The translations under genes and the position numbers were made by a program. This document shows positions 2,100-23,485 of a stretch of DNA of 24,820 nt, piece by piece. Source of the stretch: a virus (taxonomy: Duplodnaviria; Heunggongvirae; Uroviricota; Caudoviricetes); the IMG/VR virus record IMGVR_UViG_2711768053_000009; one strand, written 5' to 3'. Under the pieces are notes generated by a model. It had not been told where the DNA came from. It saw nothing but the letters and a program-made list of their open reading frames with translations, and made no database searches. Position 1 is the first letter of the stretch. Each line of letters starts with the position of its first letter.

Positions 2100-3024
2100 T
2101 GATTTTTGCGCCTTTATTCTGACTCACGGGCGTCCGGACAAAGTTCTGACTTACCGGACGTTGCGTCGTGCTGGCTATACCGGGAAAGTTTTTATCGTTG
2201 TTGATGATGAAGATAAAACCCGGCATCAGTACATAGCAGAATTTGGTGAACAGGTGCTGGTGTTTTCCAAAGCCGATATCGCCAGTCGTTTTGACGAAGC
2301 CGATAATTTCGGTGACCGCCGCTCAATTTTTTACGCCCGTAATGCCTGTTTCGACCTGGCAAAACTGGTCGGGTGTAAATACTTCATTCAGCTCGATGAT
2401 GATTATCACGAGTTCCAGTTTCGGGTGGATCGCAACTATGACCAGGCCTATTTTCCGATAAGGAAACTGGATGCGATCCTTTCTGAAATGCTGGCGTACT
2501 ACGAATCAATACCTGCTCTTTCCATCGCTATGTCGCAGGGCGGGGATTTTCTTGGTGACAATGGCGGCCATGCTTCGTGGGTGAAACGCAAGGCAATGAA
2601 CAGCTTTATCTGTTCGGTTGATCGACCGTTCTCATTCATGGGGCGCATTAACGAGGATGTGAATACGTACACGAATCTCGGTCGCTGTGGTGAATTGTTT
2701 ATGACGATCGGTGCTGTCCAGTTAGGACAGAAACAGACGCAGAAAAACAGCGGCGGAATGACCGAGCTGTATCTGGATTCCGGAACCTACGTTAAAAGTT
2801 TTTACTCCGTCATGTATGCGCCGTCGTGCGTAAAAATCTCACTGATGGGTGCCAGCCATAAACGCATTCACCATCAGGTCACCTGGAACAATGCTGCAGT
2901 AAAAATCCTTCACGAAAAATACAGGAAGAAGACACCCTGCATATCAATGGGGGTGACAAATGATTCCGTATTCGAAAGTCGAGTCTCTGGCAGCGTGCCG
3001 GATGACTGCACAACAAATCGCTGA
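2092..3024 (+). CDS. Soluble GT-A fold (family-2-like) glycosyltransferase, substrate unknown
   Basis: ATG at 2092 preceded by GGAGGAGGAGG. Translation has beta1 CAFILTHGRPD, then VFIVVDDEDKT (the hhhVDD motif of GT2 enzymes, residues about 34-44) and YFIQLDDDYHEF (DXD motif, residues about 98-107) at the spacing seen in SpsA-like GT2 enzymes. No C-terminal transmembrane helices, so unlike GtrB. The provided ORF 2071..3024 starts 7 codons upstream. Confidence 0.6.
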   Translation: MRDDFCAFILTHGRPDKVLTYRTLRRAGYTGKVFIVVDDEDKTRHQYIAEFGEQVLVFSKADIASRFDEADNFGDRRSIFYARNACFDLAKLVGCKYFIQLDDDYHEFQFRVDRNYDQAYFPIRKLDAILSEMLAYYESIPALSIAMSQGGDFLGDNGGHASWVKRKAMNSFICSVDRPFSFMGRINEDVNTYTNLGRCGELFMTIGAVQLGQKQTQKNSGGMTELYLDSGTYVKSFYSVMYAPSCVKISLMGASHKRIHHQVTWNNAAVKILHEKYRKKTPCISMGVTNDSVFESRVSGSVPDDCTTNR

Positions 3025-19551: not shown

Positions 19552-20264
19552 TGTCAAACGCTCAAAAAATACCGTTTCTCCGAACGCTGTCAGAGATGAT
19601 GACCAGTTCTGGTAACCAGCAAGCCGAGCTTAAAGGCCGTGAATTGCCCTGCCATGTTGTCGATGTCAGCGGGCAGATAGTGACAGTTCAGTTTGATATG
19701 CTGCCGGAGGGGATCAACTTTCCGCAGATAACAATCCCTGTCGCCACATTCCCGTATATTCGTTACCCGATACAGCCGGGCGATCGAGGAGTAACAATTG
19801 CCGCTGATGTATCACTGCGCGGTGTGTCTGGATTGGGAACCGGTATGGCGACGCTCTCTTACTCGATGTCGCTCACTCCACTGTTTTTCGTGCCACTGGC
19901 AAACAAGGACTGGTCCGACGAAGATCCGCAAAAAATAGTTTTGTACGGTCCGGATGGCGCGATCCTCAAAACAGAGGACGGCAGTAGCTCGGTAACGGTG
20001 GCACCGGAAGAAATCAGGCTAAAGTCGAAAGCTGTTTACCTCGAGGCCGAAGATATCTTCATGAACGGGAAAATTCATCTCAACGGTCCAATCGTACAGG
20101 ACAAAGAACAAATGAAGGATACAACCGCTTCGCTGATTGGCCCTCTCAAGGTCGAGAAAGATGCAGTTATCAACGGCGTGAGCGCCAGCGGCCACAGCCA
20201 CGATGTGACTGGCGTTCAAAGCGGCGGCAGCACGATCACGTCGAAGAAACCAAATCCGGGTTAA
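19551..20264 (+). CDS. Baseplate spike / assembly protein V-like (Mu gp45-like)
   Basis: The N-terminal segment ELKGRELPCHVVDVSGQIVTVQFDMLPEGINFPQITIPVATFPYIRYPIQPGDRGV resembles the OB-fold region of gp45/gpV spikes. Followed by a terminator. Confidence 0.5.
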   Translation: MSNAQKIPFLRTLSEMMTSSGNQQAELKGRELPCHVVDVSGQIVTVQFDMLPEGINFPQITIPVATFPYIRYPIQPGDRGVTIAADVSLRGVSGLGTGMATLSYSMSLTPLFFVPLANKDWSDEDPQKIVLYGPDGAILKTEDGSSSVTVAPEEIRLKSKAVYLEAEDIFMNGKIHLNGPIVQDKEQMKDTTASLIGPLKVEKDAVINGVSASGHSHDVTGVQSGGSTITSKKPNPG

Positions 20265-20300
20265 TACCGGCTCACTTTAAATTACATCCATAAAGCGAAA

Positions 20301-20332
20301 GTCCCGGCTGCTGCAACAGTTCGGGGCTTTTT
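20301..20332 (+). terminator. Rho-independent terminator after the spike gene
   Basis: Hairpin GTCCCGGCTG / CAGTTCGGGGC (imperfect, with one bulge and G-U pairs) followed by TTTTT. Confidence 0.5.
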
Positions 20333-20479
20333 GTATCAACAGAACAGTATTTGAAATGGCATGGAGATTACTCATGCAGCCAAATTCTAGCGCACCTAAA
20401 GATAAATTTGGAGACGATTTGATGATTAAGGCTGAGACCACTCCGCAAGGAGCAATAAGGCTGCGAGGATAATCGCGGT

Positions 20480-20686
20480 ATGCCGAGGGATTCGTCACAT
20501 ACTTACGCCTGTTGCCTGGATCATTTGTACTGCATTAGTGGCGGGTACATTGATTTACCTGAAAAACTGATAAAGGAGTTACGAGAAATGGGCGAAAGAT
20601 TACCCAACTGGAAATTCCTGTTGATATGGTGTGTGTTTTTCTTATTTGGACTATCCGCTTTGATTCAGGCGATCCGGTGGCGTTAA
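20480..20686 (+). CDS. Small membrane protein, paralog 1 (core 32 aa from ATG 20588; N-terminal extent uncertain)
   Basis: Core MGERLPNWKFLLIWCVFFLFGLSALIQAIRWR has a hydrophobic helix; AAGGAG lies 9 nt upstream of ATG 20588. Paralogous to the gene at 20806..20952. Confidence 0.5.
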   Translation: MPRDSSHTYACCLDHLYCISGGYIDLPEKLIKELREMGERLPNWKFLLIWCVFFLFGLSALIQAIRWR

Positions 20687-20805
20687 TTTTTACATAACTT
20701 TACATATGGCAATGAAAAAACAACAAATTACTTCATGGATGATTTGCTACGTGAACTCAAGCATAGAATGACATGGTGTTAAGTAATTGTTACAAAGGGA
20801 TTGGT

Positions 20806-20952
20806 ATGAAGTTTCTTTTCATTGTTTATAAATTACTAGTTGAGATTCGAGTTATGGGCGAGAAATTTCCCAATTGGAAGTTTTTACTTATCTGGTTGGT
20901 CTTTCTGATTCTGGCGTCTGGATATTTTGTTGGGCAGATCCGATGGTGGTGA
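20806..20952 (+). CDS. Small membrane protein, paralog 2 (48 aa; alternative start ATG 20854 gives 32 aa)
   Basis: MKFLFIVYKLLVEIRVMGEKFPNWKFLLIWLVFLILASGYFVGQIRWW; AAGGGA lies 5 nt upstream of ATG 20806. Versus paralog 1, the conserved N-terminal half differs mostly by synonymous codon changes, which indicates purifying selection. Confidence 0.5.
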   Translation: MKFLFIVYKLLVEIRVMGEKFPNWKFLLIWLVFLILASGYFVGQIRWW

Positions 20953-20959
20953 GGGCACG

Positions 20960-21307
20960 ATGAGGACATGGGGCCGCGTCACCGACGTGAACGGCAATAA
21001 AAAATGGGTTGCTGTAGAATCTGACGCCAACGGTGATTTCTCCTACGGCTGGCTGACGACGCTCATTCAGACGTTAAAGCTGGGGGTGGGGGAGTCGCCG
21101 TTTTATGCGAATTACGGCATTCCAGCACAGCAGTGCATCGTGCAGCAGATTTACCCGGACTACTATGTGAACATGGTTCAGCAACAGTTTGCCGGGTATT
21201 TTGCATCACTGGCAATTTCAAGGGTAGATGGGGCTGAGAACCCCACCTATAACATCGATGTTGTGTTTTTTAATGGGACCAGTTACCGGATGCAGGTTCC
21301 GGTGTGA
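20960..21307 (+). CDS. Baseplate protein, gp25/W-like (Mu gp46 position), putative
   Basis: ATG at 20960 with GGTGAGGG upstream; about 115 aa; lies between the spike and J-like genes. The provided ORF 20927..21307 starts upstream inside paralog 2. Confidence 0.45.
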
Positions 21308-21657
21308 GGCAAATTTTCGGGCATCAGTTGGGCCAGTGGCGTGTTAAGAAGTTCATCGCGTGGCATGACAATCCATCCACTTTTGCGTAGTAAGTGAATT
21401 GCCCATTCTGTGGTGATAACTGAGCCTGATTTGTGGTGCTCAATGTGGGTAACCGAGCCGTTTCTGACGCGCATGATGATGTCAACATTCAGAGGGGATT
21501 GTGTGCTGGTGGTATCTTCGCGCAGCTTCTTCTCGCACTCGATGAAGTATCGGCGGATCTGGCGTCCTTTTTCGTTGCGCTCGACCATTGCCAGTTCTTT
21601 GGCGGTGTCCAGGGTGAGGTGGTAGTCCTTGCGGCGGCGGCCTGGAGTTTTCGCCAA
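21283..21657 (-). CDS. KilAC-domain (phage antirepressor C-terminal domain) protein, probably a truncated remnant
   Basis: Translation ...[42 protein letters not shown] matches the conserved KilAC antirepressor C-domain. The ORF has no ATG before residue 24 (TTG is the only possible start), and an in-frame stop lies 11 codons upstream at 21691-21693. The 3' end overlaps the convergent gp25-like gene. Confidence 0.4.
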
Positions 21658-21669
21658 ATTTGGCGAAAA
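21648..21669. repeat. Perfect 22-bp palindrome TTTTCGCCAAATTTGGCGAAAA
   Basis: Read directly from the sequence; the reverse complement is identical. It lies at the boundary between GC-rich phage sequence and the AT-rich island and overlaps the first codons of the KilAC ORF. Confidence 0.85.
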
Positions 21670-21697
21670 TAGAATGTAGTCTAAAAAAGTCTAACAA

Positions 21698-22126
21698 CTA
21701 CTTATTTTCAGACACACATTTTTCAAAATTTTTTATCGAGTCATTGAAAACTGAATTCATTATCTCATAAGTTTTATGATCTATCTTTTTGTCTAGATAA
21801 TCTTTATTGTTTTTCTTTATTTTTTCCTTAGTATCAGTAATGGCTTTTTTACAAATTTGATAATTTATCTGCTGATCGTTTAAACCGCCTCCATTGACAA
21901 TTAGAGAAATAGCTGTATTCATGTCTTGTATATTGTAGGAATAGTGTAATGTGTCATTGGTTGGATGGCTGGGATTATCATAATAAACATTACCGAATTT
22001 CATTAACATTATTCCCGATTTCCCATAAACAGAATCAGATAAGTATGCGGCATTCATATTTCCGGCAGTAAAATTATCAGTATGACATATAAAACGCCGA
22101 CCATATTGAAGCTGTAATTTATGCAT
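21698..22126 (-). CDS. AT-rich cargo ORF encoding the mature part of a putative secreted protein (unknown function)
   Basis: 142-codon ORF in sequence that is visibly far more AT-rich than its surroundings. No convincing RBS at its own ATG. It is in frame with the upstream signal-peptide ORF 22178..22237, separated by a TAA. Confidence 0.45.
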   Translation of the reverse strand: MHKLQLQYGRRFICHTDNFTAGNMNAAYLSDSVYGKSGIMLMKFGNVYYDNPSHPTNDTLHYSYNIQDMNTAISLIVNGGGLNDQQINYQICKKAITDTKEKIKKNNKDYLDKKIDHKTYEIMNSVFNDSIKNFEKCVSENK

Positions 22127-22177
22127 AGCATCGTTGCAGGCAGCTCTTATTAGACGGGTATGATTATTGTCTTCTTC

Positions 22178-22237
22178 TTAAGCGCATACTGAAAATGAAA
22201 GAGTGGATGCAATTAGCAATGAAATTAATTTCTTCAT
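22178..22237 (-). other. Orphan signal-peptide ORF (MKKLISLLIASTLSFSVCA-stop), in frame with the downstream AT-rich ORF
   Basis: Minus-strand ATG at 22237-22235 with AAGGG 6 nt upstream. The 19 codons encode a typical Sec signal peptide ending V-C-A, followed immediately by TAA (plus-strand tta at 22178-22180). 17 further sense codons then lead to the ATG at 22126 in the same frame. Confidence 0.6.
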
Positions 22238-22258
22238 AAATTACCCTTGAGATTAACT

Positions 22259-23485
22259 ATGTCAGAAATACCAATTACTATGACCAGTGCGGGTGCGCAG
22301 CCTACGCCACCCAATGATTTGCTTGCGAATCTTATCACCAGGGTTGCTGAAAAAGTACCTGGATATACAGCCAACCTTCCGGCGGGACTTATTACAGACC
22401 TTGCCAGCACGGCAGTCGGGGCGGTGGCATTAATAGATCAGGCGCGGGTTGATCTTATTAACTCCGTAAGCCCATACGGCGCGAATATTCCGTTACTGAT
22501 GCAACTCGGAAACATTTATGGAGCACAGAAGGGATTAAGTACAAATACGGCGGTATACGTGGTGTTTGAGGCGTTGCCGGGATTTGGTATCCCTAAAGGA
22601 TTTGTGGTTGGAGACGGTAACTACCAGTATGCGGTTTCCCGCGATACGGTGGTGCCGGAAAGTGGGCAGACTGAGCCAGTCTACTGTGTGGCCACAACGT
22701 CAGGCTCATGGGCTGTACCGGAAGGGACCGTGACGCAGGTCATTACATCAGTACCCAAAGACCAGCCTGTAAAATGCACGAACCTTACCGCAGGAATGCC
22801 CGGTCAGGAGGCGAAGACGTGGGCATCTTACCGTGCCGAAGTCATGGAGTCCGGCATGTTTGGTGTGCAGGGAACACCGGATTGCTTTAAAGCGATGCTC
22901 AAATCAGTAAGCGGTGTGCGAGAAAACCTGATTTCTTTCCGGCAGTCGTCGCTGGGGAAATGGGTTGCGGTTGTTGGTGGCGGTGATCCGTATGACGTGG
23001 CTTATGCGATTTACAAATCTGTACCGGATATTTCGAAACTGACCAACGATGTAACCAATCCATCCGGTGCGGCAGTGGAAAAACGCACGGTTTCAATAAC
23101 CGTTTCGCCGGACGTTTATCAGGTGCCGTTCGTTATCCCGTCATCACAAAACGTCATGGTGCTAATCACCTGGAACACGGTGTCTGATGATTATGTTGAC
23201 CCGGCGGGTATTGCTATGGCTGTGCAGCAAAACGTTGCTGATTACATCAATTCTATTGAAGTCGGTCACCCGATAAATCTGTTGCGAATCCAGGATATTT
23301 TTACCAGCTCCGTAAAATTGCTGGTTGATGCGACGTTGATCTCAACAATCAGTGTGAGCATTGGCATTAACGGCCATATTGTTCTTCCGGCAAAAGACAC
23401 AAGCCTGGTTTATGGCGATACCTATTCCTATTTTTCGACGGTGGCATCACAGGTTCAGGTCAATAAGTATGCAATATCTGACTGA
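22259..23485 (+). CDS. Baseplate J-like protein (Mu gp47 / P2 gpJ position)
   Basis: About 408 aa; lies between the gp25-like and gpI-like genes. ATG at 22259; the provided ORF starts at TTG 22247. Confidence 0.5.
   Translation: MSEIPITMTSAGAQPTPPNDLLANLITRVAEKVPGYTANLPAGLITDLASTAVGAVALIDQARVDLINSVSPYGANIPLLMQLGNIYGAQKGLSTNTAVYVVFEALPGFGIPKGFVVGDGNYQYAVSRDTVVPESGQTEPVYCVATTSGSWAVPEGTVTQVITSVPKDQPVKCTNLTAGMPGQEAKTWASYRAEVMESGMFGVQGTPDCFKAMLKSVSGVRENLISFRQSSLGKWVAVVGGGDPYDVAYAIYKSVPDISKLTNDVTNPSGAAVEKRTVSITVSPDVYQVPFVIPSSQNVMVLITWNTVSDDYVDPAGIAMAVQQNVADYINSIEVGHPINLLRIQDIFTSSVKLLVDATLISTISVSIGINGHIVLPAKDTSLVYGDTYSYFSTVASQVQVNKYAISD

Follow-up and report, generated by a model that had tools for sequence, protein, structure and literature searches.

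The immI region of phages P1 and P7 has the order c4 antisense RNA, icd and ant. The mechanism of this system was reportedly worked out by Citron and Schuster in 1990 and by Hartmann and coworkers in 1995. Antirepressors of the AntA-KilAC type, such as SA1801 of Staphylococcus phage phiN315, carry an N-terminal AntA domain and a C-terminal KilAC domain (PF03374). Trans-acting antirepressors, including those of the Gifsy and Fels prophages and the Ant protein of phage P22, inactivate lysogenic repressors (Lemire et al. 2011, PMC3121763).

The locus described here shares features with each of these systems. It lies in a window of 24,820 nucleotides, which is the whole stretch of DNA that was analyzed. 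As in the Gifsy, Fels and P22 cases, an antirepressor gene resides in a module away from the immunity region (PMC3121763), but the protein families differ from the AntA type found in the window. The protein shares its N-terminal AntA domain with phiN315 SA1801, whereas its C-terminal module is a different and unclassified one. In relatives of the window, either C4 or sRNA-Xcc1 lies ahead of ant on the same strand, which recalls immI; however, sRNA-Xcc1 is outside the C4 clan, and none of the module is left in the window. Full-length Ant proteins of 185 aa from E. coli and Salmonella prophages share the locus, the overlap with the neighboring gene and 89%–99% identity over residues 53–185. Compared with these, the window is without residues 1–52, the start codon, the Shine-Dalgarno sequence, the sRNA-Xcc1 leader and the promoter. 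We conclude that the feature is very probably a nonfunctional, 5′-truncated pseudogene of an AntA-family prophage antirepressor gene.

Results

The window represents the late region of a temperate E. coli prophage with a contractile tail, and its genes include those for terminase, portal, sheath, tape measure, hub, spike and baseplate J. Between positions 20200 and 22400, its identity is 99.8% with isolate SC418 and 99.2% with E. coli W. The feature under study appears as a mechanical ORF of 124 aa on the minus strand (21283..21657) whose first possible start is a TTG. An in-frame TAG on the same strand (21691–21693), derived from flank sequence and not from ant sequence, closes the frame 11 codons upstream of this TTG. 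The DNA beyond is AT-rich, with a GC content of 26%–37% at 21700–22300 versus ∼50% in the flanks. At its 3′ end, the ORF overlaps convergently by 25 nt (21283..21307) with the 3′ end of a 115-aa gene of the baseplate cluster. The ORF, the upstream stop, the AT-rich DNA and the overlap had been described correctly in the initial annotation. The overlap is also present at loci with full-length ant and is therefore ancestral.

The partner in this overlap (20960..21307, plus strand; ORF from 20927/20960) lies between the spike gene and baseplate J, at the place where gp25/W-type proteins are encoded, and belongs to phrog_7986 (“unknown function”). It had been called gp25-like, a label for which position is what speaks: the protein has no Pfam match at E ≤ 1, GPW_gp25 included, and no PDB sequence match. 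Its homolog in Klebsiella phage Chronis directly abuts baseplate J. On the other side of the gene, between it and the spike gene, there is a second lower-GC insertion (20277–20960) at a place where phage Chronis has no DNA. This insertion holds two paralogous small ORFs (20480..20686 and 20773..20952) that end in a hydrophobic “PNWKFLLIW...” sequence and fall into phrog_6632 (unknown function).

The conserved sequence at the beginning of the 124-aa ORF had been labeled KilAC and described as a domain that is C-terminal in full-length antirepressors. The label is wrong. In a Pfam scan, ORF residues 4–28 match positions 44–68 of the 68-position AntA model (PF08346) with an E value of 5.6e-8. The score of 33.7 bits is above the gathering cut-off of 27, which assigns the remnant to AntA, with HMM positions 44–68 representing all that it retains of the complete N-terminal domain. 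ANT/KilAC (PF03374) gives no match to the remnant even at E ≤ 1, and none to the full-length relative at E ≤ 0.01. The positive control, phiN315 SA1801, matched PF03374 at 1.5e-21 and also matched AntA in the same scan. In the full-length relative from STEC719, AntA occupies aa 22–89 of 185 (HMM positions 2–68) and is thus an N-terminal domain, so the argument from a C-terminal domain does not apply. Since AntA positions 44–68 are found at the start of the ORF, the ORF begins in the last third of this domain. AntA-KilAC proteins are probably the source of the KilAC label.

The remnant also aligns with profile positions 92–197 of 234 in phrog_14211 (“anti-repressor”; E value 2e-46) and is 94%–97% identical to 185-aa proteins. 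Judged from these sequence matches, its homology to antirepressors is far beyond chance. The parent gene is unremarkable within the AntA/AntB antirepressor family. By family names and by analogy with the general trans-acting model (PMC3121763), we infer that the intact Ant protein would act as an antirepressor.

Behind the AntA tail, the remnant carries a module of ∼65 aa (residues ∼60–124) that is specific to this family and has no Pfam family. The same module is fused behind a Bro-N domain in protein P0052, which indicates an independent and swappable unit. An AlphaFold2 model of the full-length protein, built from a 35-sequence alignment, is of low confidence (mean pLDDT 62), and the C-terminal module is its best-predicted part (pLDDT 76–80). 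In this low-confidence model, a strand (20–22) and two helices (23–30 and 36–47) of AntA fall within the deleted part. A Foldseek search of the full-length model against the PDB returned nothing at E ≤ 0.001 and a PDB-sequence profile search gave no match, so that no fold is assigned to AntA or to the C-terminal module. NCBIfam and PADLOC scans of the remnant, the adjoining cargo protein and the neighboring small proteins gave no meaningful match.

The initial annotation had proposed that the ORF is the 3′ remnant of an antirepressor gene, and comparison with other prophages bears this out. An ant gene of 185 codons occupies the same locus, with the same 25-nt overlap, in Rac-SA53 (ALP46894.1) and STEC719 (WP_000203816.1), and the retained part is 89%–90% identical to these two proteins in a protein alignment. 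The window's own ant allele exists as 185-aa proteins (P0001 and P0018), and at locus L084 this allele is full length in the same baseplate context with other cargo genes. The remnant itself (21283..21685, minus strand) comprises the last base of codon 52, codons 53–185 and the stop codon. Full-length orthologs thus lie at the same position, and the start codon and upstream signals have been lost, as in a 5′-truncated pseudogene. The retained 133 codons contain neither a frameshift nor a nonsense mutation. An intact frame is expected after a recent deletion, so sequence decay speaks neither for nor against loss of function.

The breakpoint was located in a three-way DNA alignment that set the window against L084, which shares its ant allele, and STEC719, which shares its cargo gene. 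The deletion junction is at 21685/21686, where the left flank ending in GTTAGACTTT (minus strand, 21686 upward) is joined to TTTAGACTAC (21685 downward). On the minus strand of the window, AAGTAGTTGTTAGACTTT runs straight into TTTAGACTACATTCTA. A query spanning 21560–21800 covers 241 bp in the window versus 648 bp in STEC719-type genomes, which means that 407 bp are missing from the window. The six T's at the junction are accounted for by three from each flank, so no microhomology was consumed. We also considered the TTAGACT repeats as a source of microhomology, but both copies flanking the junction have been kept, and the repeat is therefore not the crossover point. An assembly artifact is ruled out because the junction is identical in 12 independently finished genomes.

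Upstream of the junction lies an AT-rich cargo gene (21698..22237, minus strand) that has no family match. In E. coli W it encodes a 179-aa, secreted-type protein with a signal-peptide-like N-terminus. Codon 20 is CAA in E. coli W and TAA in the window (22178–22180) and in SC418, and the NCBI pipeline PGAP then calls just a 142-aa internal ORF of this gene. The late operon resumes on the plus strand after the inverted ant and cargo genes with the baseplate J/wedge gene (22259..23485). Relative to Klebsiella phage Chronis, in which the hub, spike, 115-aa and baseplate J genes are contiguous, the block of ant and cargo is an insertion. The slot is a hot spot for accessory genes: the cargo seen there includes rac61/62, an LprI-family gene, a Rha-family gene and a pair of genes for proteins of 163 and 236 aa.

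Because prophages differ in the cargo that separates the ant-upstream region from baseplate J, and because the left breakpoint is merely 8 nt from the boundary where cargo variation starts, the truncation could be read as the scar of a cassette exchange in which the 5′ end of ant was lost during the recombination that brought in the AT-rich gene. This is close to the cause proposed in the initial annotation, in which an insertion of cargo replaced the 5′ part of ant. We consider a scar of this kind extremely improbable. STEC719 and 12 other complete genomes have a ∼96% identical cargo gene, with the same 3′ end, next to a full-length ant and its entire upstream region of 264 nt. The coexistence of this cargo gene with intact ant elsewhere means that a deletion, and not the insertion of cargo, truncated ant. 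In addition, the 8 nt retained at the left breakpoint, TAGACTTT, lie inside the conserved ant-upstream module and are common to L084, which has other cargo. On these alignments, a single later deletion of a clean 407 bp is the simplest account of the truncation, and it explains all of the observations.

The junction has a narrow distribution. Among 5,426 complete E. coli genomes, 12 have it, with 100% identity across the junction in every case. The carriers are three W-named records (two W assemblies and the W derivative KO11FL), six strains not named W (LY180, AQ15, SL112, HBUT-L, hubt-sl and B-766), two records labeled DH5alpha and the sediment isolate SC418. The two “DH5alpha” records (NZ_CP026085.1 and NZ_CM135829.1; 4.83 Mb) share the W-type prophage region studied here with 99.2% identity and have the same junction as E. 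coli W. PP818812.1 (“Actinobacillus phage vB_Apl-pPE4”) is 93.7% identical to this E. coli prophage region. The strain or host labels of these three records look doubtful.

The feature is already known, since it is the same object as two RefSeq pseudogenes, WFL_RS28400 of E. coli W (NC_017664.1 1537542–1537940) and H1D11_RS15720 of SC418, which have the same sequence and junction and are 100% identical across 21560–21800. PGAP labels both as [quoted passage not shown] Their extent corresponds to 21283..21681, from the D of “DYILF,” whereas homology to ant reaches one codon and one base further, to 21685. Other strains have independent defects of ant, seen at L085 1224–1764 (E. coli JNEC-KY178) and in P0011, P0026, P0034, P0129 and P0132; the defects are a frameshift, truncations at the N- or the C-terminus and an internal deletion. 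The ant gene seems to decay repeatedly in prophages.

In STEC719, the first base of the segment that is missing from the window is base four of TTTACA-16-TATGAT, a promoter-like site with 10 of 12 matches that lies directly after the cargo gene. The segment further contains hairpins and an imperfect palindrome, an 85-nt match to the Rfam family sRNA-Xcc1 (RF02221) at 69.7 bits (gathering score 53), a GAGG Shine-Dalgarno sequence, an ATG and 52 codons. The corresponding sRNA-Xcc1 match in Rac-SA53 scores 78.1 bits. Matches to this RNA are located at L003 3310–3394 (minus strand), L002 2730–2813 (minus strand) and about 2870–2965 (plus strand) in L004–L084. It is absent from the window, where no Rfam family matches anywhere at its gathering threshold. 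No LexA box was seen by eye in the upstream region of the relatives.

We then scanned 20 further full-length ant loci for leader RNAs. In 19 of these, an RNA is encoded on the same strand, 40–130 nt ahead of the ATG; the remaining locus, L027, has a match to ant that starts only at residue 26. Twelve of the 19 loci carry sRNA-Xcc1, and seven carry isrK plus C4 antisense RNA (RF01695; the P1/P7 immI type). In sRNA-Xcc1, the second hairpin has a loop complementary to 7–13 nt that overlap the ant Shine-Dalgarno sequence. There are nine distinct pairs of loop and target, for example UCUUUUUGC/GCAAAAAGA, UCUAUGCG/CGCAUAGG and CUUUGCA/UGCAAAG. By analogy with immI, we infer that the intact module would be controlled by a co-transcribed antisense-type RNA with allele-specific loops. 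The pattern suggests that sRNA-Xcc1, which has been described as an sRNA of Xanthomonas integrons, regulates antirepressor genes in a C4-like manner. In APSE phages, which are temperate phages of the aphid symbiont Hamiltonella, a preprint places the same RNA upstream of an ORF6N-domain gene.

No dedicated expression signals accompany what remains of ant. The interval between the cargo gene and the ORF contains no promoter-like site, and the TTG is not preceded by a purine-rich Shine-Dalgarno sequence. The interval also lacks a terminator-like site, so transcription of the cargo gene could read through into the remnant. In principle, translation could begin at an internal ATG (Met24 of the ORF) and yield 101 aa with the whole C-terminal module.

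On such read-through transcripts, a stand-alone short protein might be translated from the TTG or from the ATG of Met24 and act via its C-terminal module, for instance as a minimal or dominant-negative antirepressor. The frame is intact, the module is swappable (as its fusion to Bro-N illustrates) and best predicted in the AlphaFold model, and some gene callers report the 124-aa and 101-aa products. Nevertheless, we regard such a protein as very unlikely. The initial annotation had named a conserved family of stand-alone proteins of about 124 aa with TTG or GTG starts as the observation that would overturn a remnant, and no such family was found. Among 1,453 protein homologs, those with high identity and coverage have 185–193 aa, apart from sporadic other truncations. 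The exact 124-aa product occurs on one contig and the ATG-initiated 101-aa product on four, and both fall inside 90%-identity clusters dominated by 185-aa proteins from hundreds of contigs. The short form is therefore not conserved as a family, as befits a pseudogene. The few genomes with the junction represent essentially one lineage, the cargo gene upstream has a nonsense codon of its own in the window, and the TTG is buried in a perfect hairpin. Our reading is instead that the remnant is not a working gene and would make no functional protein.

The hairpin that encloses the TTG merits separate attention. The TTG (21655–21657) lies in the 3′ arm of a perfect 22-nt palindrome, TTTTCGCCAAATTTGGCGAAAA (21648..21669), that encodes FSPNLAKT. 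The hairpin has a stem of 9–11 bp, with 9 bp in both the minimum-free-energy and centroid structures. This palindrome is the local copy of a covarying hairpin that is found in most AntA-domain genes, in phages of Proteobacteria as well as Firmicutes. Among enterobacterial ant genes, it is present in all 27 distinct alleles between “DY/DF” and “KDYHL,” with a perfect stem of 6–11 bp in 26 and a stem interrupted by one mismatch in the 27th. The stem sequences vary among these alleles and are read in all three frames. Distant AntA genes have stems of 12 bp (Bordetella), 11 bp (Moraxella), 10 bp (Lactococcus), 9 bp (Acinetobacter and phiCD119) and 7 bp (Paenibacillus), and weaker hairpins are found in Listeria, Streptococcus, Staphylococcus and C. 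perfringens. The AntA gene of Vibrio D68 has no hairpin at this place. Across our loci L002–L177, the hairpin is seen at the homologous place with stems of 6–12 bp.

In an unselected sample of 102 distinct alleles, a 72-nt window at this position contains a perfect stem of at least 6 bp in 68% of alleles and of at least 8 bp in 31%, versus 3%–14% and at most 1%, respectively, in three flanking windows of the same alleles. Constraint at the protein level does not explain the stems of at least 8 bp, because ≤2.6% of trials with synonymous recoding attain the stem that is observed, with phiCD119 (9 bp, 12%) as the lone exception. The same palindrome is also read in different frames in different alleles, which opposes an explanation of this type. 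The encoded segment (residues 51–69) is the lowest-confidence internal stretch of the AlphaFold model.

Covariation was examined in an alignment of 44 distinct alleles that was centered on the hairpin loop and therefore leans toward structure; in this alignment, 90.5% of cells pair, versus 55% in shuffles and 35%–50% with slid partners, and double-sided changes number 158 versus 49. Compensatory changes maintain the hairpin from enterobacterial phages to those of Bordetella, Acinetobacter, Moraxella, Clostridioides, Lactococcus and Paenibacillus. The loop is A-rich and nearly always has the form C|AAAAWY|G. Selection on the hairpin at the mRNA level finds no support in these data, since G·U is not enriched over A·C (10 versus 15). 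The lack of wobble bias points to a palindrome at the level of DNA. A role as a terminator is ruled out, because no T-run follows the palindrome on either strand. Pairing between sRNA-Xcc1 and the coding-region hairpin was likewise rejected by eye: GGGAAAUA is shared in STEC719 and is unmatched in Rac-SA53.

It is possible, although we hold this tentatively and with more doubt than conviction, that 21648–21669 is an instance of a nucleic-acid hairpin that has a function and lies within the AntA coding sequence. Such an element may be a protein-bound DNA palindrome, may extrude as a cruciform or single-stranded DNA hairpin, or may form an mRNA structure. A neutral process could produce the same pattern. 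Template switching at quasi-palindromes is a known mutation mechanism, and correction of this type could keep the two arms complementary in a protein loop that tolerates change.

Discussion

The simplest history that would account for this locus begins with a contractile-tailed temperate E. coli prophage that carried an inverted module between the 115-aa gene and baseplate J. The ancestral order would have been one or more cargo genes, a promoter, a structured leader with a C4-like RNA (Rfam sRNA-Xcc1) and a 185-aa ant gene. One deletion of 407 bp, which begins at base four of the −35-like hexamer and ends with base two of ant codon 52, then took the promoter, leader RNA, Shine-Dalgarno sequence, ATG and the part of AntA with strand 1 and helices 1 and 2. 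What is left is an intact frame for residues 53–185 that has no dedicated transcription or translation signals.

As a pseudogene, the feature is one more decayed prophage accessory gene, and the standard annotation pipeline flags it correctly. The practical point is that the KilAC label and the attribution of the truncation to a cargo insertion need correcting. Two by-products of the analysis may outweigh the pseudogene itself in value. One is the covarying hairpin within AntA coding sequences across phyla. The other concerns sRNA-Xcc1, an “orphan” Rfam family, which is placed here in ant leaders exactly where C4 sits elsewhere, with a loop that covaries with the ribosome-binding site. Our findings also suggest that the E. 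coli W-type prophage no longer has an antirepressor module, a loss that could affect whether it responds to the Ant-mediated induction signals of its relatives.
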